A stretch of DNA of 64,000 bases, taken from NCBI GenBank assembly GCA_963805085.1, contig CAWDTA010000005.1, positions 352,001 to 416,000 on the forward strand. The letters run 5' to 3'. This DNA comes from an uncultured Veillonellaceae bacterium. GTDB taxonomy: Bacteria; Bacillota; Negativicutes; JARBTT01. Positions 26,783 to 56,484 of this stretch are shown in pieces (positions within the stretch are counted from its first letter, which is position 1; the number at the start of each line of letters is the position of its first letter). The notes beneath the pieces were generated by a model. The model made no database searches, had not been told where the DNA came from, and worked only from the letters and a program-made list of their open reading frames with translations. Made by a program: the position numbers and the translations under genes.

Positions 26783-26912
26783 GTATTATTCCTCCAATTT
26801 GGTTAATGTAGCGCGTCATAGCACCGTATAATATATTAAACTCCTAATGGTAATGTTCCATATAGACAAGCGACTCAGCTATAAAATTAGCAAAGCTTCC
26901 ATACAAACGGCA

Positions 26913-26999
26913 CTTCAAGTCGTCGTGTGTCGAGCGTTCAAATCGGCTCAGGCGTGCCATATGAAATCAAGGGTTCTAGCTTTGCTAGAACCTTTTTTT
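26913..26999 (+). repeat. tRNA-Arg 3'-half att copy 2 + hairpin
   Basis: CGTGTGTCGAGCGTTCAAATCGGCTCAGGCGTGCCATATGAAATCAAGGGTTCTAGCTTTGCTAGAACCTTTTTTT. Confidence 0.9.
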
Positions 27000-27077
27000 G
27001 CTTATTAAACTAAGCTGTAATTATCTATACTTTGGTATATAATGATAAAGTAATTTAGTAGAATAGGAGCAATATGA

Positions 27078-28723: not shown

Positions 28724-28820
28724 GCCTAAAATTTTCTGAGCTATGTGTCGAGCGTTCAGATTGCCAAAGCGCTCCATATGAAATCAAGGGTTCTAGCATT
28801 TTGCTAGAATCCTTTTTGTT
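28724..28820 (+). repeat. tRNA-Arg 3'-half att copy 3 + hairpin
   Basis: GCCTAAAATTTTCTGAGCTATGTGTCGAGCGTTCAGATTGCC...CCATATGAAATCAAGGGTTCTAGCATTTTGCTAGAATCCTTTTT. Confidence 0.9.
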
Positions 28821-30969: not shown

Positions 30970-31102
30970 CCTGTTCCCACGCCCATCCCTTAGTTGGTTT
31001 TAACTCCAAATTAATATTGCTATAATTAAAATTGATAATAATTATAGCAATATTAAGATGAAAATATAAATATAAATTCTGTTAGGTCAATAATATATAT
31101 TT

Positions 31103-31175
31103 GGCAGACTTACTGAAAAGTAAGGACGTAAAGTTGTGAGTCTGAGGACGATTGTCTATAATTGCTAGGTTTCCC
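31103..31175 (+). ncRNA. variant/degenerate c-di-GMP-I riboswitch
   Basis: GGCAGACTTACTGAAAAGTAAGGACGTAAAGTTGTGAGTCTGAGGAC...ATTGCTAGGTTTCC aligns with the GEMM at 1896-2003; upstream of an MCP. Confidence 0.7.
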
Positions 31176-31315
31176 TTGGAAGAGGTACTGAAACCAAGGT
31201 ATTTATCTGGGCTTTTGGTGTTTACATTCGGGGGAAAAAAATTTAGGGGAGTTTGTTCATTAAATCAGTTACAAACAAACTCTTGTCTAATTTTTAATAA
31301 AGGAGAATAATACTA

Positions 31316-33283
31316 ATGACTATTAAAGTTAAAACAATTATATTGCTGTTAATCGCTCTTTTTGTAACAGGTTTAATTGTCGGTGGGTCAGGTATGTATG
31401 TTATCTATAAAAAAACATTGAAAAACACTCAAGTAAGTATGTACGGACAGGCGTCTCAGCTTGCTGGCGGGGTCAATGAATTAGTTTCTACCTTTGCGAA
31501 AAGTGGAAAATTTTTTGGTGAAGATACCGATCTTAAGTTAGGAGATACTGCTCGCATACAAGGAAAGCTCAATACCTATTTTGCCACGTCCTGGGGAGTC
31601 GATCGTCTCGTGTTTATCAATACAGCGGGTGAGAGAGTTGCCTCAGCTCCACACGATGCTAAAAGTCTGGGAGGTAGTGTGGCTGACCGCGCTTTCTTTA
31701 AAGACACAATGACGGATCAGAAGTCGCATATCAGCGATGTGATAGTAAACAGGGTAAATGGAATGCCTTCCGTCATTGTTACACATCCCATAAAGGCGGA
31801 AGACGGCAAAATGGCAGGAATTGTTGTGCAGTCAGTCTCTTTGGACATCCTGCAAAATCTCTTGGCACCAGTTAAAGTTGGCGAAGGCGGAGTGGCCGGC
31901 ATAGTTGCCCAAGATGGATCGATACTAGCTCATACGGACAAAGATTTAATCAAAGAACAAAAAAAACTTCCTGAAGATATATTACAAACGCTGAAGGAAA
32001 ATCAAGGAAAAATGATTTCATATATGGATACTACTGGTAGAGATTCACTAGCTTTAGCTATACCAATAAAGGATACCCCGTGGGTGGTTATTGTTAGTAT
32101 GCCTAGGAGTGAGATTACCAGCGATTTTTATGCCAGTCTTACTAGTATGGTTGTTTCGCTGCTAGGGGTTTTTATTGTTGTTGGGGTTATTGCTTGGTTT
32201 TTTCTTCTCAGATTGCTGCGCCCCATCGAAAAAATTTGCGAGAAAGTTGCAAAGATTGGTGAGGGCGATCTGTCGGTGGATATTACTTCTACAGCCAAGG
32301 ATGAGATTGGAATATTGACGAGAGCCTTGTCGACAACAATAGAAAATTTTAGAAAAATGATTGTCAAGGTTCAGGAGGCAAGCGAGACGGTATCTACATC
32401 TTCTGAAGAACTTACGGCTAGCACAGAACAAGTGTCTCAGGCCGCAGATCAAGTAGTAACGACAATAACCGATGTGACCAACGGAATGTCACACCAAATG
32501 CAGGCTGTGAATGACACCATGAACATAGTTGAACAAATGTCGGCTGGCCTTCAGCAGATTGCAGCAAATACGGGTAGTGTTTCTGCGACAGCCGAGAAAA
32601 CATCAAATACTGCCTTAGCAGGTCGGGAAGCTGTTCAAAAAGTTGCAAATCAGATGGCTAACATTGAAACATCGGTAACCAATTCAGCGCAAGTAGTAGC
32701 TAAGCTCGGTGAGCGTTCTAAGGAAATTGGGCAAATTGTCGATACTATCGCGGGAATATCCAGTCAAACCAATCTATTAGCTTTAAATGCTGCCATTGAA
32801 GCTGCTCGAGCTGGCGAACAAGGTCGCGGATTTGCTGTGGTAGCTGAGGAGGTCAGAAAACTAGCAGAGCAGTCGCAGGATGCTACCAAAGAGATTGCCA
32901 CTTTAATTGGCGATATTCAGCAGGATACTACTAAGGCTGTGCTGGCTATGAACGAAGGTGCTGGTGAAGTAAAAATAGGTACTGAAGTGGCCAATGATGC
33001 AGGGCAGTCATTTAGCGAGATTGCTTCACTGATTACTGAAGTATCTGAGCAAATTCGTGATATTTCTGCGGCTATTGAACAGATGGCAAGTGGTAGTAAG
33101 CAAATTGTATCTTCGGTAAAGGATATTGCACAGATCAGCAATGATGTTACAAGTGAAACACAAATTGTATCTGCTGCCACCCAAGAGCAAACCGCATCTA
33201 TTCAGGAGATTGCCTCGTCCAGTACGGATCTTTCGCAAATGGCGGGAAATCTGCAGGCCGTTGTATCTAAGTTTAAAATTTAG
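31316..33283 (+). CDS. methyl-accepting chemotaxis protein (dCache sensor)
   Basis: TM-dCache-TM-HAMP-MA; [27 protein letters not shown]. Confidence 0.95.
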
Positions 33284-33307
33284 ATCAATTCTAGAAATAG
33301 TAGGAGG

Positions 33308-33430
33308 ATGTCAAATGTAGGGTTGCGTATTTTTCCGAATATTAATCGACGGCCTAAAGTGTTAATGGAAGGATTTGCCGGAATACCAGTGGCCAACATA
33401 GCAGATAACATGAACCGCATGTCTTGCTTC
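33308..33430 (+). pseudogene. N-terminal fragment of RraA/HMG-aldolase-family protein
   Basis: AGGAGG RBS; MSNVGLRIF...FAGIPVANIADNMNR, then similarity appears to stop. Confidence 0.65.
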
Positions 33431-33539
33431 GTACCTAAGTTGTCCTGTATCAGGATAATAAATCATGACATTTTTATTGCCTTTTATCTGCGAAACCGTG
33501 CCACGCCTAAGTTCATTTCTAATGGGGTTAGAAGCTCTA

Positions 33540-33722
33540 TCTAGGTTATTCCCAAGGAAATAATAGCCTAAAAACTTCTGAGCCATATGTCGAGCATTCG
33601 AATTGCCCTAGGCGCACCACTAGAAGACAAGGGTTCTAGAATTTTGCTAGTGCCTTTTTTGTTGTTGGTGGACAACAAAAATCATGAAAAAATGTTTGAA
33701 AAACAGAAGAGTCCCCGTTTTC
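33540..33722 (+). repeat. tRNA-Arg 3'-half att copy 4 with left and right arms
   Basis: GCCTAAAAACTTCTGAGCCATATGTCGAGCATTCGAATTGCCCTAGGCGCACCA + hairpin + TTGGTGGACAA. Confidence 0.9.
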
Positions 33723-34070
33723 TTCATTAATTAATAGATATTTTCTTCATTTATGGTGTTTAAGATTAATCGGGGGGAACAGTATCATCTCTAATGACGA
33801 AAAAACTGCCATCAAATTTTGCATAAATTTGGTGGCAGTTCTTGTGTTATATGGTAAATGCAGTTCATGTGAAGGATGATTGATCCTGCTACAGAGCCCC
33901 CTAACTAACAGGCTGAATAAAAGGGATATTGTGTAATGTCAAAAGACATTGATTGTGCATTTATAAATAAAACTTGAAGGCTGCAAAGGGCTGTGTTATA
34001 TTAATAGGAAAAAAAGGTAATTAACGAGAACAGCTCTCGTCTTTTAACAGATGGGAGTTGTTGAATTTTT

Positions 34071-35183
34071 ATGAATCATAGACAATTGGGAATGGGGTAC
34101 GGTGGTAATTTATTGCTTGGTAGTGATATGGGGAGGCAAAGGACAATGCGTAGAAAAGTAGGTAAAGCAATATTGTTGATCTTAGTAGGTTTATTATTGG
34201 TAGCAGTTTCGTTGACTGGTTGTAGTAAGTCAAAGGAGGTTGCGAAAATCAATGTTGGCTTGTTGAAACTTACGAGCTCGGCTCCAATTTTCATTGGTAT
34301 TGAAAAAGGATTTTTTAAAGAAGAAGGCTTGGATCTAGACATTGAGTGGTTTGAAGCTGCTCAACCAATTGCTGTCGCTACAGCATCTAACAAAGTTGAC
34401 ATTGGTGCGACGGGTATCACAGCTAGCTTGTTTAATATGGTTGGCACTGGTCAGTCATTAATGATTGTGGCCGACAAGGGGCGTGAGCATACTGGATATT
34501 CTTCCTCGGCTCTTTTAGTGAGAAAAGATCTGTGGGAACAAGGTATACGAAAAATTGAAGACCTAAAAGGTAAGCGCATTGGTATTACCCAGACGGGATC
34601 AACTTTTCATTATATGATAGGACGACTGTTGGAGGAAAAGGGCTTAACCTTGAATGATGTGGAAATTGTTTCCCTTGGAAAAATTGGTGCTCTAATGGCC
34701 AGCTTACAAAGTGGGCAGGTAGATGCGGTTATTTTGAATGAACCTAATATAAGTAAAGTGGAATCAGCTGGTTATGGTAAAATTCTATCTCAAGTAGGGG
34801 ATGTTATGGATTATCAGACCTCAGCCATATTTTTTTCACCCAAGTTCGTTAAGGATACAAGCGTAGGTATAAAATTTCTAAAAGGATATATTAAATCTAC
34901 TCGTTACTATTATGATGCTGTACTAAATTCGAAAGAGGGTAAAGTTGTGCCTGGTACAAACTATGATGAAGTCATCAATATTATTGCTAAGTATACAGGA
35001 GTTCCTTTGGAGGACGTAAAATCTGGATTACCATACCTTGATCGTGACGGGAAACTGTTAAGTCAGGATATCCAAACCCAGATTGATTGGTATGTAAGCC
35101 ACAAAATGATTGATAAGCCGATCAGTAGTTCTCAGGTCGTGAATGGGGATATGTGGGAAACGGCATTGAAAGAACTTAAATAG
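34071..35183 (+). CDS. ABC transporter substrate-binding lipoprotein (NitT/TauT/SsuA type; true start likely ~34146)
   Basis: Lipobox LTGC, KGFFKEEGLD, DLKGKRIG. Confidence 0.88.
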   Translation: MNHRQLGMGYGGNLLLGSDMGRQRTMRRKVGKAILLILVGLLLVAVSLTGCSKSKEVAKINVGLLKLTSSAPIFIGIEKGFFKEEGLDLDIEWFEAAQPIAVATASNKVDIGATGITASLFNMVGTGQSLMIVADKGREHTGYSSSALLVRKDLWEQGIRKIEDLKGKRIGITQTGSTFHYMIGRLLEEKGLTLNDVEIVSLGKIGALMASLQSGQVDAVILNEPNISKVESAGYGKILSQVGDVMDYQTSAIFFSPKFVKDTSVGIKFLKGYIKSTRYYYDAVLNSKEGKVVPGTNYDEVINIIAKYTGVPLEDVKSGLPYLDRDGKLLSQDIQTQIDWYVSHKMIDKPISSSQVVNGDMWETALKELK

Positions 35184-35206
35184 GGCTTCTCGGGAGGATA
35201 TATATA

Positions 35207-35986
35207 ATGAAAGTAATCATTGAAGATATTCATAAAAAATTCTGCGTTCGAGATCAAGAAACCATTGCACTTGAGGATATTAACTTTACTATTGACGAAA
35301 AAGAGTTTGTCGTCTTAGTTGGTCCTAGCGGTTGTGGCAAATCTACACTTTTAAATATGGTGGGGGGGTTACTGAGTCCTACTTCAGGGAAAATCTATGT
35401 AGAAGGATTGAAGGTGGATCGGGATCCTTCTATTGGCATGGTATTTCAAGAAATAGGACTTTTCCCATGGCGGACTGTTAGGGAGAATATAGCGTTCGGG
35501 TTGGAAGCAATGGGACTGTCAAAAGGGGAACAGGTAGAGCGGGTACAATATTATACCGAGCTTGTAGGGTTAACGAATTTTAGTCATTCTTTTCCTCATC
35601 AACTTTCTGGAGGTATGCGTCAGAGAGTTGGAATCGCAAGGGCACTCGCTATTCAGCCTGACATATTACTCATGGATGAACCATTCTCGGCCCTTGATGC
35701 GCAATCGCGGACACTTATGCAGGAAGAATTGCTGAGAATTTGGAATCAGACCCAGCTGAGCACTCTATATGTGACACATAATATTCAAGAAGCGGTCTAC
35801 TTAGCTGACCGTGTTATTGTTTTGTCCCGACGTCCTGGCCGCATTAGCAGTATTATATCGATTGATTTACCTAAATTCGGACGAGATGACAGTAAATATG
35901 TAACTGAATTTAATAACTATGCCGAAGCGATTTGGCAGATGATACGCAAAGATGCGCAAGATGCCTTGCAGGAGGGGGACGAATAA
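35207..35986 (+). CDS. ABC transporter ATP-binding protein (TauB/SsuB type)
   Basis: GPSGCGKST, LSGGMRQR, LLMDEPF. Confidence 0.93.
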   Translation: MKVIIEDIHKKFCVRDQETIALEDINFTIDEKEFVVLVGPSGCGKSTLLNMVGGLLSPTSGKIYVEGLKVDRDPSIGMVFQEIGLFPWRTVRENIAFGLEAMGLSKGEQVERVQYYTELVGLTNFSHSFPHQLSGGMRQRVGIARALAIQPDILLMDEPFSALDAQSRTLMQEELLRIWNQTQLSTLYVTHNIQEAVYLADRVIVLSRRPGRISSIISIDLPKFGRDDSKYVTEFNNYAEAIWQMIRKDAQDALQEGDE

Positions 35987-36777
35987 TGACTTATCAGCGA
36001 GAAGTTGTCAATCGTTTAGCTTCTATTGAGAAAGAAGCATCCAAATGGGTCTCTGTAATGACGGTGCTTTTGCTATTAATAATATGGGAATTGGTGTGCC
36101 GTAGCGGATTTGTATCAGAATTGTTCCTGCCTGCGCCGACGAGGATTTTGCTTACTGGTTGGGATATGGTGATGAGTGGAGAATTACTTGTGAATGGCAA
36201 AGCTAGTTTAATACGTATACTGATTGGCTTTTTGAGTGGTAGTATTGCGGGCATTTTTCTTGGTCTATTTTTGGGATTTTCTAAATTAGCAGATGCCATG
36301 GGTAATCCCGTAATTTATGCTCTTTACCCCATTCCTAAGCTTGCCTTATTACCGTTAATTATACTCTGGTTGGGCATAGGCGAGTTATCAAAGATTTCGA
36401 TTATTGCATTGGGGGTATTTTTCCCAGTAGTGATAAATACCTATTCAGGAGTAAAAAATCTTGATCCACTACTGATAAAGGTAGCGGCTAGTTTTAAAAC
36501 GACTAAGTATAATATGATTCGGAAGGTAATTCTGCCAGGGGCAATGCCAATTATTTTTGCCGGATTAAAGCTTGCAGCTGGGACGGCACTGTTATTGTTA
36601 GTTGCCGCTGAGATGATTGCGGCGAAAGAGGGCATCGGAGCCATGATTTTACACTATGGTGATCTTATGCTTACAACTAAACTAATGGTAGGGATACTGA
36701 CGTTATCCCTGCTGGGAGTTATTTTTAATCATTTTCTGCAATGGGTAGAACGGCGTGTAATTCCATGGAAAAATTAA
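35986..36777 (+). CDS. ABC transporter permease (TauC/SsuC type)
   Basis: LPAP, PIPKLALLP, LVAAEM; ATG overlaps the previous stop. Confidence 0.9.
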   Translation: MTYQREVVNRLASIEKEASKWVSVMTVLLLLIIWELVCRSGFVSELFLPAPTRILLTGWDMVMSGELLVNGKASLIRILIGFLSGSIAGIFLGLFLGFSKLADAMGNPVIYALYPIPKLALLPLIILWLGIGELSKISIIALGVFFPVVINTYSGVKNLDPLLIKVAASFKTTKYNMIRKVILPGAMPIIFAGLKLAAGTALLLLVAAEMIAAKEGIGAMILHYGDLMLTTKLMVGILTLSLLGVIFNHFLQWVERRVIPWKN

Positions 36778-36789
36778 CTGTTACGACGA

Positions 36790-37229
36790 TGTATGTAGCA
36801 AAGGGATAGACCATTATACCCTGTCAAGGCTGTTTAGTTTGTCGTAAGACAGGACACTGCGTCATGCAAGACGATTTTCAGAACATGTTTAAACATGTTA
36901 TCAATGCCGATGTTGTGGTTTTCGGCTCGCTCGTATACATTTGGCAGGTTACAGCTCAAATGAAGCTGTTGTGGGATAGATTTTGCGGCTTGTTCGATGA
37001 AAACTACAAGCCTAGGTATGCCGCTAAAAGCCTGATCATGGTATATTCTCAAGGAAATCCAAATGCACAGGCTTTTCAAACATCCTTTCAAACCAATGAA
37101 GCTGTGCCTAAGATGTTTGGTTTACATGTAGTCGATACTATTTTGCTAACGGGCGGCGGAGACCCCAACACCGCAGCTAGTAATAAAGAACTTTTATTAA
37201 AAGCTTATGAAGCAGGGAAAGCAATTTAG
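36790..37229 (+). pseudogene. 5'-truncated iron-sulfur flavoprotein/flavodoxin-family gene
   Basis: PCQGCLVCRKTGHCVMQDDF in frame upstream of the called ORF; N-terminal strand missing. Confidence 0.7.
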
Positions 37230-37449
37230 CCGACCTGCAATAGTACGCTTCACGAAGTAACCGACCAACCGGGCTGGGCTCCCCAATTTCGGGCCCGTAG
37301 GTTCTGCTTCTTAATGGCATCTCTTGGAACCGAGTAGAATATTTTCATCAGGGTTTTGTCGCCGGGTAAATGCAATTAGTGTTGAGACATGGGAATAGAC
37401 AGGGGCTTGATTTTCCTCAGCGAACCGAAGCCCTATCCACCTTTATAAT

Positions 37450-37503
37450 AAATTCGCCGTTAGACCTGATGCGCAGAACCGTATCACTTATAATGGCTAA
37501 AAA
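37450..37503 (+). repeat. palindromic SCC/rlmH-like att site A
   Basis: AATTCGCCGTTAGACCTGATGCGCAGAACCGTATCACTTATAATGGCTAAAAT. Confidence 0.8.
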
Positions 37504-37669
37504 TGGCATGAGCCCTTATTTAATAGGGGAGCATGCCATTTTGTGGTAGCCTGAATTATATGAATAATCAATATGTAAAACATGTAGTGGCTTATTTATG
37601 GAATAATTCAGAAAGACATAGGAACGGTGGTACTTTAGTGGCCTTGTCGGGGTTCCATTGACATCCTTG

Positions 37670-38554
37670 TTATGGTGATTTATTTAATTTTGATGCTGCC
37701 ATCATATTATAAAATTGCTTAGGGGTAACACCGTATTCATTCTTAAAAGATCTGAAGAAATTTGAATAATCACCAAATCCAGATTGTTTGTAAACGCTAT
37801 TTATTGGATAGTCATTAAGAATTAGCTCTTTAGCAACAATTAATTTTTTCTGTACAATATACCTGTGAATTGTAGTACCTGTATGCTTAGAAAATTCCCT
37901 GGACAGATGGAATTTACTAAGATAAAACTCTTTAGAAAGTTCATCAAGGGTAATGTCTTCATCGATATGATTATTAATATACTCAATTATTCCTTCAATT
38001 AGATGGTTCTTCTGTACAGTAATATCTATGTCAGATTTATCGTTTAAAACGAGATTGTTTAAGTGTATGGCAATCTCTGTAATATAAGCTTTATAGAGCA
38101 AGTCTTTGCCGAAACCTTTGTAGTTATCAAGACTCAGAAGTTTATTGAGCTGTGTCCTTATGTTTTGGCGAAATTCAATGTCAGCTCTTATTACATTTTT
38201 TTTTACTAAGCTTTCAAAGCATAGGGGAAGATCAATTTCTGGTGTTGACAATTCCTGTAGAAAGGATTTGTTTATCCAAAGCACGATACGCTCATAGGGA
38301 GTCTTCATGCTATTAACAATTGCGTGATGAAGTTCTCTTGTATTAATTAATATAATGTCCCCTAATTGTAGATTATAGGATTTGCCTTCGATTAAAAACG
38401 TTACATCTCCAGACATATATAGATAAAGCTCATAAAAATCATGATGGTGTAAATATAGAAAAGGAAGATCAGCATTTAAAAAGTGAAAGACTTCATAATC
38501 ACGGGGAAGCATATGCTTTCGTGTCAAAAATTCATGGATGCCTTTTTTTTTCAT
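37670..38554 (-). CDS. AraC-family regulator
   Basis: Cupin HHHDFYEL, C-terminal HTH GFGDYSNFFRSFK..GVTP. Confidence 0.93.
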   Translation of the reverse strand: MKKKGIHEFLTRKHMLPRDYEVFHFLNADLPFLYLHHHDFYELYLYMSGDVTFLIEGKSYNLQLGDIILINTRELHHAIVNSMKTPYERIVLWINKSFLQELSTPEIDLPLCFESLVKKNVIRADIEFRQNIRTQLNKLLSLDNYKGFGKDLLYKAYITEIAIHLNNLVLNDKSDIDITVQKNHLIEGIIEYINNHIDEDITLDELSKEFYLSKFHLSREFSKHTGTTIHRYIVQKKLIVAKELILNDYPINSVYKQSGFGDYSNFFRSFKNEYGVTPKQFYNMMAASKLNKSP

Positions 38555-39156
38555 TATTATCTCCTCCTAATCAATTTGTATAAATTGATTTTAAATTTTC
38601 TGAATTATTCCATTACTGAATGGGTTTAATAGTGAAAAATAACTGTAATTAGTAGTGAGTGTTAGCGAAGCTTATCTATATTATATTTTGTAGAGCAATT
38701 TTTGCAAGTTTTTGAGCAATCAAAACATATTTTTTATATCTTTATACAGCTATGATTTAATTGTAATGTTTAAACTAAAATGAGTAAGAAGATTTACTTA
38801 ACATCACCTTGCCAGTTTAATGCAATGGAAGAAAAATTAAAAGAGCTATTATTAGTGTAGGTTATTATTGGGATGATATGTTTTTATGTGGATTCATCAG
38901 TAAGTAGCTTAGCAGATGAAAAACAGTAACTGTTTTTTAATTTTGATTTTTTGCTTAGAATATTCGAAATATAAAGAATGTTCGAATAAACAAGCAAGGG
39001 AAAAGTGCTAAATATATGCCATAAAATTTTTTTTCTGGTGGTGTCACTAGCTCTGGCGGGTACCGGAGTTTTCTTGAAACCGGGGATAATAAAGGACACT
39101 TACTGAAAGATAGATAATAATCAACCGAATAAAATGTGTTTACGAGGAGGGGTAAT

Positions 39157-41637
39157 ATGAATTTATTACAGATTGATGTTAATGATGATTTTATTGAAAT
39201 GCATACTGATGAAGCTTGGGTGCGAATGATATTTCTTAGCGCCGACATCTTTCGGGTACGGGTTTCTTGGAATGAAAAGTTTCTGCCCGATCGTTCGTAT
39301 ATTCTGGTAAAAACAGCATGGGAAGACGAATTAGACGAATTTATGAGCAGTGAAAGGATAAAAGTAAAACCATATGTAGCCCACCAGGAAGAAACAGCAG
39401 AAAATGTAATTTTTCATACTGACTCGTTAGAAGTCAGAATAAAGAAAGCACCATTTGCTATTTCTGTATATAACAAAAGCGGCGTGTGTCTACATGAAGA
39501 TGTTCCGGAAATTGCTTATGGCAAAGATCATTTGGGGCGTGTTTATCACTATAGTGTGAAACCACTTAATAATTGTTATTACGGTTACGGGGAAAAAACG
39601 GGATTTCTTAATAAAGATAAACGGCGTTTGCGTATGAGCAACAAAGATACGATTGGCTATGATCCACGTCAAGCTGATCCGCTTTACAAGCATATTCCGT
39701 TTTATATGGTGCTAAATAAAGAGAGTAAAACCGCTCATGGCATTTTCTATCATAATGCGTACGATTCTATTTTTGATATTGGCGCAGAACGTAGCGGCTA
39801 TTGGGCCCCTTATACTTATTTTGTGGCTGACGGAGGGGAAATGGATTGGTTTTTCTTTAACGGACCTACGGTTAAAGATGTTGTTGCCAATTATACAGAT
39901 ATTAGTGGAAAAACAGTGCTTCCTCCACGCTACAGCCTAGGGTATATGGGGTCAACGATGTATTATACCGAACTGCCGAAGAAATCTGATGAAGCAGTAC
40001 TTGGCTTTATTGCGCAAGCTAAAGAAGAAGATATTCCCTGTGAAGGATTCTTTTTGTCTTCCGGTTATACCAGCGGTAAGGATGGCAAACGATATGTATT
40101 TGAATGGAATGAAGCACGTTTTCCCAATCCAGCCGAATTTATTAGGCAGCTACAGCAAAATGGTGCAGAGCTATGTCCTAATGTTAAGCCAGGTATGCTG
40201 CTATCGCATCCGCAATACAAAAAATTTGCCGATGCGTCAGCATATATAAAGGATTCTAAGAAAGAGCGGCCGAGAATTGATCGTTTCTGGGGTGGGCCTG
40301 CATCCTTTATTGATTTTACTAATCCAAATGGACGTCAATTATGGAAGGAGGGGTTAAAAAATGCGCTCATCTCTAACGGAGTAGTGGCTATCTGGAATGA
40401 TAACTGCGAGTATGAGACGCAAGATGTAATGGCGGTATGTTATGGTGACGGCAAGCAAGAACCATTAGGAGGATTGCGTCCAATCATGTCAACGCTGATG
40501 GCGCGTATGGCGCACGAAGCAATGGCGGAATCCAGACCTGGTATTCGTCCTTATGTTTTGAACCGTGCTGGTTTTGCTGGGATTCAGCGGTATGCTTCGA
40601 CTTGGTGTGGTGATAACTGGACAAGTTGGGACAGTTTTAAATTTAATATCCCGACTATTTTAGGGATGGGCTTGTCTGGTGTAGCGAATCAAGGCAGTGA
40701 TATTTGTGGCTTTGCTGGACCGCGCCCTGAGCCTGAACTTTTAGTTAGGTGGATTCAGCAAGGAATTTTTCAGCCGCGATTTTGTATTCACTCTTGTAAC
40801 GATGACAACACAGTGACTGAACCCTGGATGTATCCGGACTATACTTCGTATGTAAGAGAAGCCCTTAAACTTCGTTATACCTTAATTCCATATTTATATT
40901 CCTTAATGTATCAAGCTTCAATTGAAGGAACGCCAATTATGCGCCCAATGTTGTACGAATTCCAAAATGACAGCAAGGTATATGAGGAAAGCTTTGATTA
41001 TATGTTTGGACCGAGCCTGTTGGTTGCCAACGTGCTGGAAAAGGGAGCGATCACACGGGATGTTTATTTGCCAGAAGGTACAATCTGGCGGGAATGGGGA
41101 ACTTGGCAGGTGTTTGCTGGTGGACAAGTCATTACTGTGGATGCACCGCTTGACAAAATACCGTTATTTATCAAAGTCGGTAGCATTATACCAATAACAG
41201 AAGGTATTACGAATTTAAGAACGCAGGAAATTACTAGGATTAAATACCTGATTGAACCAAGCGCTGATGGCGAGTTTACTATGTATGAAGACGATGGTTA
41301 TACTCAGAAATATAAAGATAAAGAATATCGTACAACACAGATTATTTGTACTGCTAAACAAGAAGTCTGCAATGTAGAAATTTCTCGTAGTGGTAATTAT
41401 CAAAGTCCTATAAATAGTGAAGAAATTCAAATGATTTGTCCTGAGAAAGCACCACTAGAAGTCCGAGTAAATGGACAGTTGTTGCAAAAAATTATGAATA
41501 TTGCTCATGGAAAACAAAACGAAAATGCTTGGTATTATGATACGCAAGCAGGTATTGCTTTTATTTCTTTACCTGAACAGCAAGAAAAGATAAGTGTAGA
41601 AGTATTGTTTGCAAGCAAAGATTTGATTTCGATTTAA
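39157..41637 (+). CDS. GH31 glycoside hydrolase (alpha-glucosidase/xylosidase family)
   Basis: LYKHIPF, IWNDNCE nucleophile, WCGDN acid/base, GSDICGF. Confidence 0.92.
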   Translation: MNLLQIDVNDDFIEMHTDEAWVRMIFLSADIFRVRVSWNEKFLPDRSYILVKTAWEDELDEFMSSERIKVKPYVAHQEETAENVIFHTDSLEVRIKKAPFAISVYNKSGVCLHEDVPEIAYGKDHLGRVYHYSVKPLNNCYYGYGEKTGFLNKDKRRLRMSNKDTIGYDPRQADPLYKHIPFYMVLNKESKTAHGIFYHNAYDSIFDIGAERSGYWAPYTYFVADGGEMDWFFFNGPTVKDVVANYTDISGKTVLPPRYSLGYMGSTMYYTELPKKSDEAVLGFIAQAKEEDIPCEGFFLSSGYTSGKDGKRYVFEWNEARFPNPAEFIRQLQQNGAELCPNVKPGMLLSHPQYKKFADASAYIKDSKKERPRIDRFWGGPASFIDFTNPNGRQLWKEGLKNALISNGVVAIWNDNCEYETQDVMAVCYGDGKQEPLGGLRPIMSTLMARMAHEAMAESRPGIRPYVLNRAGFAGIQRYASTWCGDNWTSWDSFKFNIPTILGMGLSGVANQGSDICGFAGPRPEPELLVRWIQQGIFQPRFCIHSCNDDNTVTEPWMYPDYTSYVREALKLRYTLIPYLYSLMYQASIEGTPIMRPMLYEFQNDSKVYEESFDYMFGPSLLVANVLEKGAITRDVYLPEGTIWREWGTWQVFAGGQVITVDAPLDKIPLFIKVGSIIPITEGITNLRTQEITRIKYLIEPSADGEFTMYEDDGYTQKYKDKEYRTTQIICTAKQEVCNVEISRSGNYQSPINSEEIQMICPEKAPLEVRVNGQLLQKIMNIAHGKQNENAWYYDTQAGIAFISLPEQQEKISVEVLFASKDLISI

Positions 41638-41682
41638 TAGCATTTAAATGGACTCAAAAATAAGTTGCGGGGGAGATAAAAA

Positions 41683-42960
41683 ATGGCTAAATTTAAACAA
41701 TTGCGTTGGTCAATGCTGGTCTTATTTATTACAGGCGTAACGATAAATTATATTACAAGGAACTCATTAGGTATATTGGCGCCCGAACTGGAACGTATTT
41801 TACATATGTCTACTCAAGAATATTCCTGGGTTGTTGCTGCGTTTCAAGCTGCGTATGCAATCTCTCAACCAATTTGTGGATGGGTGCTGGATTTTATTGG
41901 GTTGAAGGTCGGTTTCCTGTTTTTTGCTCTGGCCTGGTCGGTGGTTTGTATGCTTCATTCCCTGGTTACCAGTTGGGAAGCACTAGCCGGTTTGAGATTT
42001 CTCATGGGGGTTACTGAGTCTATTGCAGTACCTGCTAACTTGAAGATCTTAACCGATTGGTTTCCGTCTAAAGAAAGAGGAGTTGCTGCCGGATGGGCAG
42101 GTGTTGGATTTTCCTTCGGTGCCATGTTGGCACCTCCGTTAGTTGTTGCTATTAGCCTACAATATGGCTGGCAGGCGGCGTTTTTTGTAACTGGTTTTAT
42201 GGGATTAATCTGGGCAGGCATTTGGAAGATTTATTATAATAGCCCCAAGGATCACAAGTTGATTTCGCAAGAAGAAAAGGATTATATTTTAGATGAAGCG
42301 ACTGTAAGATCAAGAGAGCCATTAAAAACTAACCTTTGGACCAGTTTTAAAGAGATTTGCAAAGTGAAAAAATTCTATGGAATTGCTATACCTGCTTTTT
42401 TGGCTGAACCAGCATGGCAGACAATGAGTTTCTTTGTTCCTTTATATTTGTCGACAGAAAGAGGTATGAATTTAAAAGAAATTGCTTTATTTGCTTGGCT
42501 GCCGTTTTTAGCAGCCGACATTGGAAGTGCTGTTAGCGGCTATTTGGCAAAGATGTATCGTGGAAAATTTACTTTATCTAACAACAATGCTGCAATTTGG
42601 AGTTCCATATCAGGAGCCTGTCTTATGATTTCACTGACTTTCGTTCCTTTTGTGCATAGACCTTATGCAGCCATTGGTCTAATAGCGATTGGCGGGTTTG
42701 GGCACGCAGCGATTTCTGCAATGCTTGGTGTTTTGATTATGGAGAATTTCGAATCGAATCAGGTTGCTTCAGTCAACGGTATACGTGGCTTTTCAGCATG
42801 GACAAGCGCCTTTTTATTCTCCCTTTTGATTGGTGTAGTTGTACCGAAATTTGGATATAATCCTATATTTATTAGCATGGGTTTTTTTGATATAATTGGT
42901 GCGGGTTTTATGTTGTGGTTTATTTATGATAAAGGGGTAAAAGCCTTAAAGTCCAAGTGA
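41683..42960 (+). CDS. MFS transporter (ExuT/ACS-like)
   Basis: INYITRNSL, WFPSKERG; about 12 TM segments. Confidence 0.88.
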   Translation: MAKFKQLRWSMLVLFITGVTINYITRNSLGILAPELERILHMSTQEYSWVVAAFQAAYAISQPICGWVLDFIGLKVGFLFFALAWSVVCMLHSLVTSWEALAGLRFLMGVTESIAVPANLKILTDWFPSKERGVAAGWAGVGFSFGAMLAPPLVVAISLQYGWQAAFFVTGFMGLIWAGIWKIYYNSPKDHKLISQEEKDYILDEATVRSREPLKTNLWTSFKEICKVKKFYGIAIPAFLAEPAWQTMSFFVPLYLSTERGMNLKEIALFAWLPFLAADIGSAVSGYLAKMYRGKFTLSNNNAAIWSSISGACLMISLTFVPFVHRPYAAIGLIAIGGFGHAAISAMLGVLIMENFESNQVASVNGIRGFSAWTSAFLFSLLIGVVVPKFGYNPIFISMGFFDIIGAGFMLWFIYDKGVKALKSK

Positions 42961-43045
42961 TTTTTGCTAAATGGGTGTCTTAGAAATGGGGGTTCATCCT
43001 GTCTAGACATCCTTTTTTCAAAGACATGGGTCAAGACATTCAATA

Positions 43046-43103
43046 CATGGGGACGGAGGTATTGTCAGAAGGACTCTAAATGACAGTTCCACCGTCCCCG
43101 CTG
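43046..43103. repeat. REP-like GGGGACGG...CCGTCCCC palindrome
   Basis: GGGGACGGAGGTATTGTCA-N12-TGACAGTTCCACCGTCCCC; related halves at ~37617 and ~45800. Confidence 0.55.
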
Positions 43104-43249
43104 CTTGAGTGACTGACGTAAGCAAAGGAATTGTTGAGAAAAGCTAAGGAAGCACTATCTCCATCCCTATGTACTCTGTATTTCCTATTCGTGTATTTGT
43201 ATCATCTCACGATCACAACACAGTATGTCAGTGGGAACATATTAAGAAA

Positions 43250-43303
43250 AAATTCGCCGTTTGACCCGATACGCAGAACCGTATCATTTATAATAGCGAA
43301 ATA
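43250..43303 (+). repeat. palindromic SCC/rlmH-like att site B
   Basis: AATTCGCCGTTTGACCCGATACGCAGAACCGTATCATTTATAATAGCGAAAT; 5800 bp from site A. Confidence 0.8.
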
Positions 43304-43665
43304 GTTCCTGTTAACTTTTGTTAAAATTGGCAGGAACTATTGTGTTGTATGGCAAATATAGATATTATAATAAATAAATCGAAACTATTAAAATGAACAA
43401 TTGGTAAGATGTGACTCGGAAGAGTTTTAAGGCACAAAGGAAAAGAGCAATGTCTTAGGACAACAAAGCTGGTGTGTATTGCAGGGCCAACGGGGACAAA
43501 TTGATTGCCTCGAAGAATCAAGGATGCTATGGTATTAATCCTCTTAATAGGCATGATGAATGAAAAATTCCATGTGCTTATTAAGAGGTTTTCGCTTGCT
43601 TCCTTCGCCTATTATCGATTTGTATTAGCAGGAGTCTCGTACAATTATTTTTTTTTAGGTAATTA

Positions 43666-45093
43666 TTATACTGTAAGTTGTTTTTCTAAAGAAAGTGGAA
43701 TATGCAGTCTAATTGTAGTACCTTCGCCTGGTATACTTGTCAAGTCAATGACACTATCATGCTGCTCGGCAATATATTGTGCAATAGATAGACCGAGACC
43801 GGTTCCGACTGTGAGTTTTGAACGGGATGTATCAACCCAGTAAAAACGGTCAAAAATCTTAGATTGGCATTCTTGTGGTATGCCAATTCCGGTGTCTTGA
43901 GCCGTAATATCTAAGTAAATGCTAGTTCGGTATGAGACGATAGAAATTGTTCCACCGATAGGCGTATATTTGATACTATTTTCGATAAAAATTCGTAACA
44001 GTTGCTTGATAGAGGCAGAATTGGCATAAATAACAGCAGTATCATTTTTACTTAGAAGTATGCAGTGACTTGGGGCGATGAGGCGAGTTTCCTGTACGAC
44101 TTCTTCAATTAGGTTCTTTATATTAAAGTTGACCTTATTCTGAACCTGCTTACTCCGGTCGGCTCGTGCAAAAAAAAGTAACTTTTCAATAAGTTCATGC
44201 ATATTGGCTGCTTCAGATTTTATTGCACTAATTCCTTCATCTAATATATCTGGGTCTTGTTTACCCCAACGGTCTAGCATATTTGCATAGCCAATGATAA
44301 CAGTGACGGGAGTACGAAGTTCATGGGAAGCATCTGCAGCAAAACGTCGCTGTTGTTCAAAGCCTGTCTGAAGCCGATCTAACATATGATTTGTTTTCGC
44401 CAATTTGTGCAGTTCATTATTGTTATTGCTGACATCAATGCGCTTTCCAAGGTCATTAATATCAATCGCTTTAGCAAGGAAAGTTATATCGCGAATGGGT
44501 CGCAAAATGTTGCGGATGATAAATAGGCCTGACAAGATGATAATCAATAGTCCGAGGAGGCTGCTTATTTTCATGATAGTAGATAAACTTTCTAGAAAAT
44601 CTTCTTTTTCCGAGATTATTTTGAGAAAATGCAATTGGTATGTATGTTCATTGTGTTGTACCAATTGTTTTAGGTAATAAAAATGAGTATGGTTCACCGC
44701 GAAGGCTGGTGCTACTTCTTCACGGAGCAAAGTGTTTTCAAGTAGATGAACACCTTCCTGATCGTTCATCTGAAGTTGGTGAGTACTGAGTGTAGAAGGG
44801 GCATTGTCTAGTACCAATGTATTTTGCTCGTCGAAAACCCTGAGGATAATATCGGGTACAAGAATATTTTCATTTAATAAATGTTCATCCAGGGGATGAT
44901 CGGCTACTATGTAACTCATTACATTATTGGCACTCATTTTAAGGTCGTTTGACGCCTGGGAATACAAGATATATTGTACCCACCAGACTGAAATGAAACT
45001 GGTGATGAATAGAATACACAATGAAACTGCTATATAGAGTATTGATAATTTAATCGAATTTGGTAAGGTAATACTCTTAATCTTTGACCACAT
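43666..45093 (-). CDS. HAMP sensor histidine kinase (possibly decaying)
   Basis: ADASHELRTP H-box, ENSIKY, DTGIGI, GTGLGL. Confidence 0.88.
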   Translation of the reverse strand: MWSKIKSITLPNSIKLSILYIAVSLCILFITSFISVWWVQYILYSQASNDLKMSANNVMSYIVADHPLDEHLLNENILVPDIILRVFDEQNTLVLDNAPSTLSTHQLQMNDQEGVHLLENTLLREEVAPAFAVNHTHFYYLKQLVQHNEHTYQLHFLKIISEKEDFLESLSTIMKISSLLGLLIIILSGLFIIRNILRPIRDITFLAKAIDINDLGKRIDVSNNNNELHKLAKTNHMLDRLQTGFEQQRRFAADASHELRTPVTVIIGYANMLDRWGKQDPDILDEGISAIKSEAANMHELIEKLLFFARADRSKQVQNKVNFNIKNLIEEVVQETRLIAPSHCILLSKNDTAVIYANSASIKQLLRIFIENSIKYTPIGGTISIVSYRTSIYLDITAQDTGIGIPQECQSKIFDRFYWVDTSRSKLTVGTGLGLSIAQYIAEQHDSVIDLTSIPGEGTTIRLHIPLSLEKQLTV

Positions 45094-45472
45094 AGCCTAC
45101 TCCTCTGACCGTATGAATATAATTTTCTTCAAACTGCTCGTCTAGTTTGCTGCGCAAATAGCGAACATAGACATCTACTACATTTGTATTTCCTGTATAT
45201 TCATAACCCCAGGCCTCTTGTAGAATGTGTTCGCGATTGAGCACGATGTGCTAATTGCGGACCAGATATTCGAGGAGGCCATATTCTTTTTTTGTCAATT
45301 CCACGGGCTGTCCGCTGACCTGCGCTTCGTAACGGTTTGGAAATAGGACAAGATTTTTTACGTGTAATTTTCCTTCGTCGGCTATTTGGTGCTTACTCAT
45401 ATTTTTACGAAGTGTTGCACGGATTCGGGCTAGAAGTTCTTGAATGGCGAATGGTTTGGTTAGATAGTCATA
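45077..45472 (-). pseudogene. OmpR-family response regulator remnant
   Basis: DYLTKPFAIQELLARIR...NVVDVYVRYLRSKL...TVRGVGY; most of the receiver domain missing and an in-frame TAG. Confidence 0.85.
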
Positions 45473-45832
45473 AGCTTTTTTTAATCTAATTCTAATCTTG
45501 AACTAATAATCTTGCAAAAAATAGTGAGGTAATAATAATGCCAAATTTTGTTATCCAGGGACAGATTTTCATATTAGCGTGAATAAAATTGAGGAGAAAA
45601 TGTTGAATATAAAACCTAAAAAATATTTTAAAAATAAGCATTCAGTAAAGGTTAACGTGAAATTATTTCCACTAAAACAACCAATACTAGTGACAACAGG
45701 TTTATTGGCTTCTGAAGTAACTATGCTGGAAGCTTACATGATATTGGAGAAGTGGGGATATAGCATAAAGTTCCATAGATAAATATTTTGCAGGAATCAC
45801 GGGACGGTTCTTCACTTAAATACGATTAGAAT

Positions 45833-45887
45833 AATTCGCCGTTAGAGAGGTGATACGCAGAACCATATCATTGGTAACGACGAAAAT
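45833..45887 (+). repeat. palindromic SCC/rlmH-like att site C
   Basis: AATTCGCCGTTAGAGAGGTGATACGCAGAACCATATCATTGGTAACGACGAAAAT. Confidence 0.75.
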
Positions 45888-46508
45888 GCTGAGGCAGTTG
45901 CAAAACTTGTTGCAGAAAACTATGGAGTTGAAACTGATAGTTTTCAAATAGATGTTACTTCTGAAAACTCTGTTAAAGATGTAGTGAGTGCAATTATTAA
46001 AAAATTTGGCAGAATAGATATACTTATAAATAATGCAGGAATTACAAGAGATGCTAGAATAATGATGATGAAAGCAGCAGATTGGGAAGCTATATTAAAG
46101 ACAAACTTAACAGGTGCATTTAATTGTACAAAATTAGTTTCTAAACATATGCTTAAACAAAGATATGGAAAAATTATAAATATGACAAGTGTGGTAGGAA
46201 TCATGGGGAACATTGGACAAGCTAATTATTCAGCTTCAAAAGCAGGTCTTATAGGGTTAACAAAAACAACAGCGAAAGAACTAGCAGCACGGGGAATCAC
46301 AGTCAATGCAATAGCACCCGTATATATAAAATCCGATATGACGGAGGTACTTTCTGATGAAGTATCTAGAAAAATGCTATCATTAATACCGATGGAGGAA
46401 TATGGGACTCCTGAAGATATTGCAAATACAGTATTATTTTTAGTGTCAGATAAAGCAGGATACATTACTGGGCAAGTGATTAATGTAGATGGCGGAATGC
46501 TTATGTAA
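45870..46508 (+). pseudogene. fabG: 5'-truncated 3-oxoacyl-ACP reductase (FabG-like SDR)
   Basis: NNAGITRD, YSASKAG, ITGQVINVDGG present; Rossmann TGxxxGIG N-terminus absent, open frame begins at att site C. Confidence 0.8.
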
Positions 46509-46637
46509 ATACTGATTTTATTAGATTAACCTTCCGTTATTCGCAATTTTTGTCCACCAATAAAAGATAATATGAAATGAATTTGAAGCTGTTACATGGA
46601 AGATAGCTGTTTGAATTAATGCTAATTTGCTATGTGG

Positions 46638-46760
46638 AGACCTAGTATTCTCAATAAAATCAAAGCCTAAAAAGTCTAAGCCCTGTTTCAAGCGTTCGAA
46701 TCGCCCCAGACACACTATTTATCAATCAAGGGGTCTAGCATTTTACTAGAGCCTTTTCTG
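46638..46760 (+). repeat. tRNA-Arg 3'-half att copy 5 with left arm
   Basis: GCCTAAAAAGTCTAAGCCCTGTTTCAAGCGTTCGAATCGCCCCAGACACAC...CAAGGGGTCTAGCATTTTACTAGAGCCTTTT. Confidence 0.88.
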
Positions 46761-46822
46761 TTTAAAAAAATAAAAAAAACATGATTTTTGTAATAAAAAA
46801 ACATGTTTCGATTTACTTTCGC

Positions 46823-47116
46823 TTGCAATCCCCAAGAAATGGATTATAATTAATAATAGGTGGAAATTAAAAAAATCGCCGTGTCCTGAGAGTGTTAGAG
46901 CACTCTCAGGCACGAGCAGGTGTTATGGGCACCTACACGTAACAGCTAGCTGTCTACGACGACAATTTATTATACCGTGCTTTTCTCTTGATTACAAGGG
47001 AGCTGGCTCATTCGGCATAATACGATTGAAGCTTTGGCAGAGGCTTAGCGTCTGCATGCAATCAAAATGAAGCAAAGCGCATGTGTAGGTAGGATAACCT
47101 CGCATGCGTTTTTTTT
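46823..47116. ncRNA. putative sense/antisense RNA pair
   Basis: + promoter TTGCAA-N16-TATAAT (46823-46850); - promoter TTGTAA-N17-TATAAT (~46996-46968); hairpin GTCCTGAGAGTG/CACTCTCAGGCAC; + terminator ~47077-47116. Confidence 0.4.
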
Positions 47117-51576: not shown

Positions 51577-51618
51577 AAGATGAAAGCGGGAATGACCGAT
51601 TTTGCCAAGATTTTTATT

Positions 51619-51760
51619 CTTCTAAGCAGTGTGTCGAGTATTCAAATCACCTCAAGCGAACCATTTGAAATCAAGGGTTCAGCATCTTGCTAGAACCTTT
51701 TTGTTATTGGTGGACAAAAAATAAAGAAAAATGTTGGAACACAGAGGCAGCCCCCTTTTT
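51619..51760 (+). repeat. tRNA-Arg 3'-half att copy 6 with right arm
   Basis: CTTCTAAGCAGTGTGTCGAGTATTCAAATCACCTCAAGCGAACCATTTGAAATCAAGGGTTC...CTAGAACCTTTTT-GTTATTGGTGGACAAAAA. Confidence 0.88.
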
Positions 51761-55977: not shown

Positions 55978-56019
55978 ATTTGTAAAAGTAGTAGTATGCT
56001 ATTACTTTTACAAATTTAC

Positions 56020-56050
56020 TTGACTTAGAGTTGACTCCAGATGATATGAT
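56020..56050 (+). promoter_or_regulatory. MerR-type promoter/operator 1
   Basis: TTGACT-N19-TATGAT with dyad GAGTTGACTC in the spacer. Confidence 0.88.
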
Positions 56051-56088: not shown

Positions 56089-56484
56089 GTGATTTTTATG
56101 TTGATTGCAGAAGTAAGTGCAAAATATGATCTTTCTGCCGACACGCTCCGCTATTATGAACGTATTGGACTTATTCCAGAGGTACATCGCAATAAGAGCG
56201 GTATCCGTGATTATACAGAAGAGAACTGCAGGTGGGTTGAGTTTATCAAATGCATGCGAGTTGCTGGATTACCAATCGAAGTATTGATCGATTATGTCGC
56301 AATGTTTCAGCAGGGCGATTCGACAATCGCGGAGAGAAAAGAACTGCTCATTGAGCAACGTAGAAAATTGGTTAAAAAATTGGAAGCTATGCAAGAAACG
56401 ATCAATCATCTGGATTACAAAATCAAGAGATATGATGATTTAGTTATAAAAAAAGAAAATCAAATGAAAATACCGAAATTTTAG
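56089..56484 (+). CDS. MerR-family regulator (AdhR-like)
   Basis: DTLRYYERIGLIP, WVEFIKCMR. Confidence 0.93.
   Translation: MIFMLIAEVSAKYDLSADTLRYYERIGLIPEVHRNKSGIRDYTEENCRWVEFIKCMRVAGLPIEVLIDYVAMFQQGDSTIAERKELLIEQRRKLVKKLEAMQETINHLDYKIKRYDDLVIKKENQMKIPKF

Follow-up and report, generated by a model that had tools for sequence, protein, structure and literature searches.

A putative ccr-less cassette array of the SCC family, away from rlmH and lodged among tRNA-Arg repeats in a Negativicute

Staphylococcal cassette chromosome (SCC) elements carry methicillin resistance. Nearly all that is known of their biology comes from staphylococci; experiments have extended it once, to Enterococcus, and there are brief mentions of other Bacillota. 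Large serine recombinases (LSRs) of the CcrAB or CcrC type insert these elements, as circles, into the last codons of rlmH. Here we describe a row of four rlmH-like sites in the genome of an uncultured Veillonellaceae bacterium (G000; the assembly is 83% complete). The row lies in a 64,000-nt stretch, G000:C5:352001-416000, which we call the window. We think it very likely that the four sites are attachment (att) sites of the SCC family. The locus reads as a partly decayed composite array of that family, which lacks ccr genes, has been displaced from rlmH, and is lodged within an array of tRNA-Arg repeats.

As described with the tool SCCmecExtractor (PMC13739063), SCC att sites have a central GA 6 bp upstream of TATCATAA and are made of degenerate inverted half-sites, three of which are alike, while the fourth lies in the rlmH frame. 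The staphylococcal core given in the initial annotation of the window agrees with the published central GA, the inverted half-sites, and the fourth half-site in the rlmH frame. According to PMC6222049, the Enterococcus cassette chromosome (ECC) of E. faecium is like SCC: ccrAB lies at the 3' end of rlmH, the att repeats are ~50 bp long and contain inverted repeats, and the cargo varies greatly; one case is mentioned there in which ccrAB and att sites lie away from rlmH. The Rice laboratory (PMC10061031) reports SCC-like islands behind rlmH in Paenibacillus pinistramenti, Niallia, Listeria, Trichococcus, and Bacillus. These islands have 1-2 LSRs and copies of the rlmH end at their borders, and tandem composites occur among them. 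The helicase and the recombinase operon are described as their core; the passages on them describe neither att sites nor arrays away from rlmH. In the main text of that article, none of the terms Sporomusa, Pelosinus, Negativicutes, Selenomonad, and Veillonell occurs. More broadly, our literature search found no report that joins rlmH or "cassette chromosome" with Negativicutes, although supplements, which were outside the search, may hold more. A search for rlmH together with "large serine recombinase" and Bacillota returned PMC10061031 only.

The sites in the window share the half-site architecture of SCC (GA, then ACCG, then TATCA). As with SCC, elements are stacked head to tail and many of them lack ccr; the relatives' target is the last codons of rlmH; and some relatives have a CcrB-like gene with a partner LSR gene, along with DUF927/Cch, DUF960, and DUF1643 in an element of the genome G044. 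There are also differences. The core is TATCA(T/C)T(T/G)(A/G)TAA instead of TATCATAA, because RlmH ends in HL or HW here, and the outer box is TTCGCCGTTA. The relatives' recombinases score below half of the CcrB equivalog cut-off, and the relatives carry several arrays that are scattered over the chromosome (for example, G027 has 24 sites). The window's array is off rlmH, without ccr, and inside a tRNA-Arg repeat array. According to the passages on ECC, that element keeps the TATCATAA core and its transfer was shown experimentally, whereas the present array comes from a different class of hosts and is known from sequence alone. Among the features that define SCC, the window has the att architecture and its direct repetition at the ends of units, and it does not have insertion at the 3' end of rlmH, ccr genes, or, among the 10 ORFs scanned, the core locus. 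By these features the array groups with the ccr-less (pseudo-SCC or SCI) elements; we filed it there because there is no Resolvase match in the window and no strong CcrB-like match in G000.

Sites in the window and the ends of rlmH genes

The initial annotation had reported three direct copies of about 53 bp, each a nested imperfect palindrome whose right half encodes EPYHL or EPYHW and then a stop. Reading all three copies (at 37450, 43250, and 45832; sites 1-3 in Table 1) confirmed this description, and we found a fourth, site 0, that had been missed. A 20-nt core, TGATRCGCAGAACCRTATCA, occurs three times in the window, with 1 mismatch apiece. Among 100 shuffles of the window that preserved dinucleotides, none reached three occurrences, and the mean was 0.01 matches. 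A repeat search of the window also recovers sites 1-3, as families D6 and D7.

Sites 1-3 have an outer box (ATTCGCCGTTA / TAAYRRCGAAA), an inner box (TGATACG / CGTATCA), and the centre CAGAAC, and the dyad centre is the GA within CA-GA-AC. The right half is GAA CCG TAT CAC/CAT TTA TAA (EPYHL-stop) in sites 1 and 2 and GAA CCA TAT CAT TGG TAA (EPYHW-stop) in site 3. From site 0 to site 3, the central GAs of successive sites are 3699, 5800, and 2584 bp apart, and the sites delimit three units, which we number 0 to 2.

Site 0 was recovered with a profile made from the three palindromic copies. It has a right arm of the usual type (ACAGTATCATCTCTAATGACGAAAAAA) and a non-palindromic left arm (GTTTAAGATTAATCGGGGG), and the two arms together translate to VFKINRGEQYHL-stop. 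An alignment with the rlmH ends of four relatives (alignment A4) identifies it as a remnant of roughly the last 45 nt of an rlmH gene. Site 0 resembles the rlmH of genomes in family f6 and not the rlmH of G000, and we infer that the array was built up behind a foreign rlmH and came in together with that gene's last codons. The window was originally said to lack rlmH. This is correct for the intact gene, which in this genome is on another contig, and incorrect for the 3' remnant at site 0.

The genome's own rlmH (G000:C2:21522-21995) ends in GEKYHW-stop, encoded by GAGAAGTATCACTGGTGA, and gives only a loose match to the repeat. We also compared the rlmH loci of nine relatives (G053, G027, G068, G116, G006, G044, G086, G040, and G164). 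In all nine, the 3' DNA of rlmH reads ...TTTAAGATTAATCGGGGAGAACCGTATCA(T/C)nnnTAA(C/T)GGCGAAAA, which is the right half of the window's repeat, from the Glu codon onward, and the RlmH protein ends in ...FKI(N/S)RGEPYH(L/W)-stop. Read strictly, the correspondence with rlmH 3' ends that the initial annotation required fails in the host, where it is loose, and stands in the relatives, where it is exact. In eight of the nine, palindromic sites lie downstream of rlmH on the same strand, 0.4-29 kb off and often several in a row; for G086, no palindromic site was found within the 27 kb that we fetched at rlmH.

The rlmH gene of G000 has an insert of its own. A decayed second copy of the gene's last ~75 nt lies 6.1 kb downstream (C2:15376-15399 and 21506-21528; the duplicated segments are at 7350-7435 and 13480-13565 of locus L052, on the - strand). 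The 6.1 kb contain a fragment of an IS3-type transposase (identified by eye) and three further open reading frames (ORFs), and this island is bounded by the long (>70 nt) duplication of the gene end and not by a palindromic site. Elsewhere in G000, there are two weak or half sites on one strand, 10 kb apart (C2:1693286-1693317 and C2:1703277-1703308), and a decayed site of the palindromic type with AELHHW-stop (G000:C2:218113-218151), which is also present in the congeneric genome G001.

We also considered the sites as structures. A terminator-like hairpin directly follows site 0 (Table 1), and similar hairpins can be read from the sequence 3' of sites 1 and 2. In a terminator scan, the inner palindrome of site 2 came up as a weak candidate hairpin; the hairpins 3' of the sites are far stronger. 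As single-stranded DNA, the sites fold weakly (-5.4 to -6.6 kcal/mol, z from -0.7 to -2.2), which led us to drop a structural (hairpin) reading of them. Scanning with Rfam found no RNA family at any of the sites. When true pairs of left and right arms are compared with shuffled partners, they agree at 8.75 vs. 7.06 of 19 positions, and the 4-nt spacers are perfect complements in 10 of 136 cases (the mean with shuffling is 1.5); this set is a mixture of subfamilies and chance matches, and we conclude nothing from it.

Recombinases, spread of the sites, and shared cargo

To find relatives of CcrB, we used the NCBIfam model NF047343, in 24 site-rich genomes and then, at E = 1e-90, in a sample of 401 genomes of the class. 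In 6 of the 24 site-rich genomes, CcrB-like proteins stand out as a separate class at 392-427 bits. The other LSRs of those genomes score at most 198 bits, a figure that excludes the adjacent partner LSRs (160-257 bits). A second LSR gene lies beside the CcrB-like gene in five of the six genomes. In the larger sample, a CcrB-like gene (E = 1e-90 or better) was found in 8 of 401 genomes. By the equivalog rule, these proteins are relatives of CcrB and not orthologues.

Five of the six genomes (G044, G040, G164, G006, and G086) have the ccrB-like gene, or the pair, in the element that comes first behind rlmH. This element is bounded by an rlmH-type site and a palindromic site and spans ~21 kb in G044, ~29 kb in G040, ~26.5 kb in G164, and ~16.5 kb in G006; in G086, its far end is beyond the stretch that we fetched. 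In the sixth genome (G043), there is a palindromic site 4.4 kb beyond ccrB, and there is no rlmH on the 14 kb fetched. We scanned one element, from G044, for other genes, and it encodes a DUF927 helicase that has the Cch HTH_56 domain, along with DUF960 and DUF1643, which we take to be the core locus of SCC. The original suggestion of an SCC-like, rlmH-type array in a Negativicute gains support from the rlmH ends of all nine relatives and from these ccr-like and SCC core genes.

In the window, none of the 10 ORFs that were scanned with Pfam matches DUF927 or the Cch-type helicase, DUF960, or DUF1643. All of the genome's matches to Resolvase (PF00239) and Phage_integrase (PF00589) are outside C5:352001-416000, and for these two families the initial statement that the window has no recombinase holds. 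G000 does have two LSR genes, at 61 and 168 bits against the CcrB model. We considered these two, and the LSRs closest to the arrays of G027, as the cognate enzyme and rejected them, as they reach only 61-168 bits.

The sites are widespread. With up to 2 mismatches, the core is found in 101 of the 401 genomes of the class, while a reversed control pattern is found in 18 genomes (counted by eye). The genomes with multiple copies are concentrated in families f6 (14/15), f25 (14/20), and f10 (3/4). In G027, which is a complete genome, the sites were counted with the pattern for the right arm; the control count is 0. On G027:C1, all 18 forward-strand sites lie at 87 kb-2.30 Mb and all 6 reverse-strand sites lie at 2.42-2.78 Mb, a polarity that could follow the replication arms. 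In a broader scan of sequence records, we estimated that there would be some tens of chance matches, and counted matches only where the profile extends beyond the core. Among the matches listed, full sites are found in Sporomusa ovata, S. silvacetica, Sporomusa sp. KB1, Pelosinus baikalensis, and metagenome-assembled genomes of Pelosinus. Also among the matches listed, the inner core with the continuation TATCA(T/C)AA(G/A)T is found in Paenibacillus, Cohnella, Clostridium, Romboutsia, Enterococcus, and Carnobacterium, and the Paenibacillus sites have the outer box TTCGCCGTTA / TAACGGCGAAA in common with the sites in the window. The initial annotation had proposed a search for further copies, and they turned up both in this genome (site 0 and the weak half-sites) and in many genomes of the class.

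Some sites are split by other DNA. In G121:C17, the palindromic left half continues up to ...CGCAGA and is followed by foreign DNA, and ~250 bp further, the foreign DNA passes into ...GAACCGTATCA and a normal right arm, which is the reciprocal half. Another record (L109) has this left-half junction as well. Because the split sites end at the dyad centre, they provide independent support for exchange at the centre. The foreign arm that is joined at the central GA is conserved over ~45 nt (GAACGAAATCGCT..GCGATGGCTTAT..CAGTTC) in unrelated records (L041 1195-1510, from G121:C17, and L109 3700-4240, - strand). It may belong, as an att arm, to another element for which these sites are targets.

The cargo of the array is shared with other genomes as well. 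Unit 1 is 89% identical to G068:C4:331023-336363 and 86-90% identical to G027:C1:779154-784378. Both are genomes from another family, and in each of them the unit is preceded, at 350-420 bp, by a decayed rlmH-remnant site and followed, at 95-160 bp, by a palindromic or degenerate site. In these two genomes, the idea that this 5.8-kb unit sits behind rlmH fails for a working rlmH and holds for a decayed rlmH remnant, with a palindromic site on the other side. Unit 2 is 87% identical to G098:C77:7820-9626, with an att site ~600 bp beyond, and unit 0 has 88% nucleotide identity to G121:C17:28236-30530, on a contig with an array. A 9.6-kb metagenome contig (X3, record 23) has unit 1 and then a site like site 2, which is one more instance of this unit beside a site. 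We did not find the array in the one congeneric genome that we compared (G001, 84% complete).

Public sequencing runs yielded only contigs from peat, bog, and sediment metagenomes, with 0.03-0.11 of the window's sampled words. The metagenome contigs that align to 33000-47000 are pieces of other organisms, at 90-99% identity. Some alignments join one site to another (33803>37453, 37502>43253, and 43301>45851), as excision products would, and we rejected them as such: their short sides are 22-33 letters, and the best reading is that, in each case, a single att site from another genome aligned to two copies of the repeat.

Alternative explanations and a proposed mechanism

Several observations weigh against assigning this locus to the SCC family. 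The array in the window is away from rlmH and has no ccr gene. None of the CcrB-like proteins reaches the 900-bit equivalog cut-off of NCBIfam, and all are below half of it. A Ccr-like LSR, which the initial annotation had proposed to look for, was found in relatives, in the first element after rlmH, and not in G000, where the best match is a generic LSR at ~166-168 bits (in an assembly that is 83% complete). Many of the single core matches among the 101 genomes are probably due to chance. The homology of the cargo breaks off abruptly before it reaches the sites, by 100-420 bp on either side, so the cassettes did not simply move between these genomes as site-to-site units. For unit 0 (in G121), and for the upstream side of unit 2 (in G098), the homologous stretch has no site within 1.5 kb. 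Also, in G027 and G068, several arrays far from rlmH are headed by remnants of the rlmH left arm. A simple model does not account for the travel of this arm, because the left arm stays in the chromosome at excision. Finally, all of the support is comparative, and recombination is deduced from sequences.

Some of these difficulties would be eased if the sites do recombine but the arrays were built or shuffled mainly without Ccr enzymes, either by another LSR or by homologous recombination between the ~50-bp sites and the copies of the rlmH end. The early end of cargo homology favours such shuffling, and remnants of the rlmH left arm far from rlmH are an unexpected product of conservative site-specific excision. 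The sites are also far commoner than ccr-like genes (101 vs. 8 of the 401 genomes), the four relatives that were searched have 8-11 Resolvase-domain matches each, and the insert behind the rlmH of G000 is bounded by a duplicated gene end instead of a palindromic site. Nevertheless, we consider it unlikely that Ccr enzymes had only a minor part. Strong CcrB-like genes lie 4.4-11 kb from the next downstream site, where that site was reached (G043, G044, and G006), and usually in the first element after rlmH (5/6 genomes), while the LSRs near the arrays of G027 (at 2468568 and 2783455) are outside the site-bounded units and in the opposite orientation. Split sites break at the dyad centre, as expected of a serine recombinase that cuts the central dinucleotide. 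The scarcity of ccr genes is also the rule in staphylococci, where ccr-less elements occur beside a few that bear ccr (the SCCmecExtractor article gives 450 att pairs without ccr; PMC13739063).

Two other explanations do without site-specific serine recombinases altogether. The sites could be ordinary dispersed palindromes (REP-like repeats, terminators, or an operator) that take no part in DNA mobility, and EPYH could be read there by coincidence. The copies are indeed intergenic palindromes, they are numerous in many genomes, and the terminator scan did pick the inner palindrome of site 2. But the right arm is the true coding end of rlmH in all nine relatives, ccr-like and SCC core genes lie inside site-bounded elements, and all copies of one array have a single orientation. 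The sites themselves fold weakly, and separate, much stronger terminator hairpins lie 3' of them. We regard mere dispersed repeats as very unlikely. The remaining possibility is that the sites are like the attC sites of integrons, that is, folded single strands that are acted on by a tyrosine recombinase, with the cassette boundary in the outer box. The layout is similar: each site is an imperfect palindrome with two boxes in either arm, it lies where short cassettes meet, and no recombinase is close by. The outer boxes contain GTT...AAC. The outcome is similar too: a row of promiscuously exchanged cassettes, with imperfect palindromes in between and mostly without a recombinase of their own. 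However, attC boxes have the order RYYYAAC...GTTRRRY, and the order here is GTTA...TAAC. The sequence itself is conserved across families, and not merely the fold, which is weak (-5.4 to -6.6 kcal/mol). The cassettes have multiple genes, in either direction, with their own regulators and promoters. Split sites break at the centre of the palindrome instead of in the outer box, which points to a crossover at the centre by a serine rather than a tyrosine enzyme, and there is neither an attI/intI platform nor a Phage_integrase match in the window. To us, attC-like sites seem barely credible.

If the sites belong to the SCC family, as we prefer, then each would consist of two inverted half-sites (inner TGATACG, outer ATTCGCCGTTA) around the central GA and would be bound by a recombinase dimer. 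Two sites would be synapsed and cut at the GA. A circular cassette could thereby be inserted at rlmH, whose coding end would be the odd fourth half-site, or at any palindromic site of an array. Repeated insertion would give a head-to-tail row of cassettes, most of them without a recombinase and presumably served in trans. Most likely, the row in the window was assembled behind the rlmH of a donor similar to Sporomusa or Pelosinus and was then moved, along with the rlmH remnant, into the interval between tRNA-Arg repeats. Because there is no ccr-like gene in the assembly and several cargo genes are broken, the array is probably an immobile relic in this genome. Still, its sites seem well enough preserved to serve a Ccr enzyme, were one provided.

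The same att logic, along with ccr-like genes, would then operate in diderm, environmental Firmicutes, whose arrays are richer and more scattered than those of staphylococci. This would extend the SCC system to a group of bacteria for which the literature that we searched gives no report. The diverged att sites and enzymes would be a natural set for understanding how Ccr recombinases read half-sites, and the locus suggests that arrays without ccr can move away from rlmH as passengers of other islands. In the annotation of these genomes, the ~53-bp site could serve as a simple marker for cassettes gained by horizontal transfer. The broader picture in the relatives, with many scattered arrays and few ccr genes, may be the more interesting part. 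Tentatively, and with somewhat more doubt than conviction, we suggest that in spore-forming Negativicutes (similar to Sporomusa or Pelosinus), SCC has grown into a genome-wide network of cassettes that resembles an integron. Such a network would have dozens of sites per genome, several arrays headed by remnants of the rlmH end, and cassettes that are common to families at 86-90% identity. About 1 in 10 site-bearing genomes would have a ccrAB-like enzyme, so most of the recombination would be in trans, and whole arrays could be exported inside other mobile DNA (here, a tRNA-Arg island).

Cargo of the array and the enclosing tRNA-Arg repeats

The initial annotation had described a 5.8-kb unit with AraC, GH31, and MFS genes and a 2.6-kb unit with a decayed two-component system. 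Pfam confirmed the genes of both units, whose central GAs are 5800 and 2584 bp apart. These genes, the contents of unit 0, and the repeats around the array are listed in Table 1. The G+C content of the array is 0.385, which is not distinct from that of the genome (0.374).

Table 1. The array and its surroundings, in window coordinates.
Feature	Position	Strand	Evidence or remarks
tRNA-Arg(TCT) 3' half + terminator, seven direct copies	23113-23209, 24165-24261, 26910-27006, 28735-28820, 33570-33666, 46675-46762, 51614-51710	+	Repeat search; 23113-23209 is the gene itself
Site 0, putative att site, rlmH-proximal type	33758-33805	+	Central GA 33777-33778; E = 0.0034 (nhmmer, whole genome)
Terminator-like hairpin directly 3' of site 0	33804-33840	+	Terminator scan; 16-pair stem
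Unit 0, ABC transporter (NMT1-like binding protein, ATPase, permease)	34071-36777	+	Pfam
End of unit 0, 5'-truncated flavodoxin-like / FMN-reductase ORF	36810-37229	+	Family match begins at profile position 58-72
Site 1, putative att site, palindromic (element-type)	37450-37503	+	Central GA 37476-37477; E = 7e-17 (nhmmer, whole genome)
Unit 1, AraC regulator	37670-38554	-	Pfam
Unit 1, GH31 glycosidase	39136-41637	+	Pfam
Unit 1, MFS transporter	41683-42960	+	Pfam
Site 2, putative att site, palindromic	43250-43302	+	Central GA 43276-43277; E = 1e-17
Unit 2, histidine kinase	43666-45093	-	Pfam
Unit 2, response regulator, split over two frames	45077-45250 + 45251-45502	-	Pfam
Site 3, putative att site, palindromic	45832-45886	+	Central GA 45860-45861; E = 1.5e-13; right arm EPYHW-stop
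5'-truncated SDR (FabG-like) gene, fused to right arm of site 3	45876-46508	+	Pfam

About 50 codons are missing from the start of the SDR gene that follows site 3, and the junction with the att arm lies in a GAAAA that the two have in common. Intact homologues read ...KVIITGTNEEKAKAV, and in the window's version the att arm runs into NDENAEAV. We considered whether the right arm of site 3 is native coding sequence of the SDR gene and rejected this, as the intact homologues differ there and are two codons longer. Instead, the junction reads as a deletion that ended in the GAAAA of the att arm. In unit 0, a contig from a peat metagenome joins 34069 to 36742, with 24 other letters in between, which points to a relative that has this neighbourhood without the ABC transporter genes. 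Upstream of 36818, other metagenome contigs continue the flavodoxin-like gene, with sequence that differs from the window's.

ARAGORN finds just two tRNA genes in the window, tRNA-Pro and tRNA-Arg(TCT), at 23003-23162, with the tRNA-Arg gene at 23086-23162. The six copies of its 3' repeat besides the gene delimit units of 1-13 kb. The fifth and sixth repeats in Table 1 are the left and right borders of the interval around the sites; the left one belongs to families D1-D3, at 77-83% identity to the reference copies, and the right one to families D2 and D3. Because the interval between them (33666-46675) is taken up by the rlmH-type array, which runs from site 0 through the truncated SDR gene, the initial description of the array as nested is right. 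It had been placed inside a tRNA array, and there the nesting stands, with the correction that the enclosing repeats are 3' halves and not tRNA genes. The window contains no integrase beside the tRNA-Arg repeats; the closest match to Phage_integrase precedes the window by 38 kb, at C5:313363. Overall, the arrangement looks like tandem accretion of islands at tRNA-Arg, and it is the first of the two stacked systems to which the initial annotation refers. In the loci that we examined in other genomes, there were no tRNA-Arg repeats next to the arrays.

Other repeats and regulatory elements lie outside the array. A 32-nt direct repeat, CTTGACTTAGAGT..ACTCCAGATGATATGAT, has 4 copies ahead of ORFs (56019-56050, 56665-56696, 58240-58271, and 63709-63740), and a 234-nt pair (56094-56327 and 63757-63990) is 76% alike; together they make up families D4 and D5 of the repeat search. 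They look like promoter or operator regions that paralogous genes have in common. There are also two Rfam matches to the c-di-GMP-I riboswitch, at 1921-2008 on the - strand (77 bits) and at 31093-31177 on the + strand (42.5 bits), and the second of these is just upstream of a methyl-accepting chemotaxis gene with dCache and HAMP domains (31316-33283).

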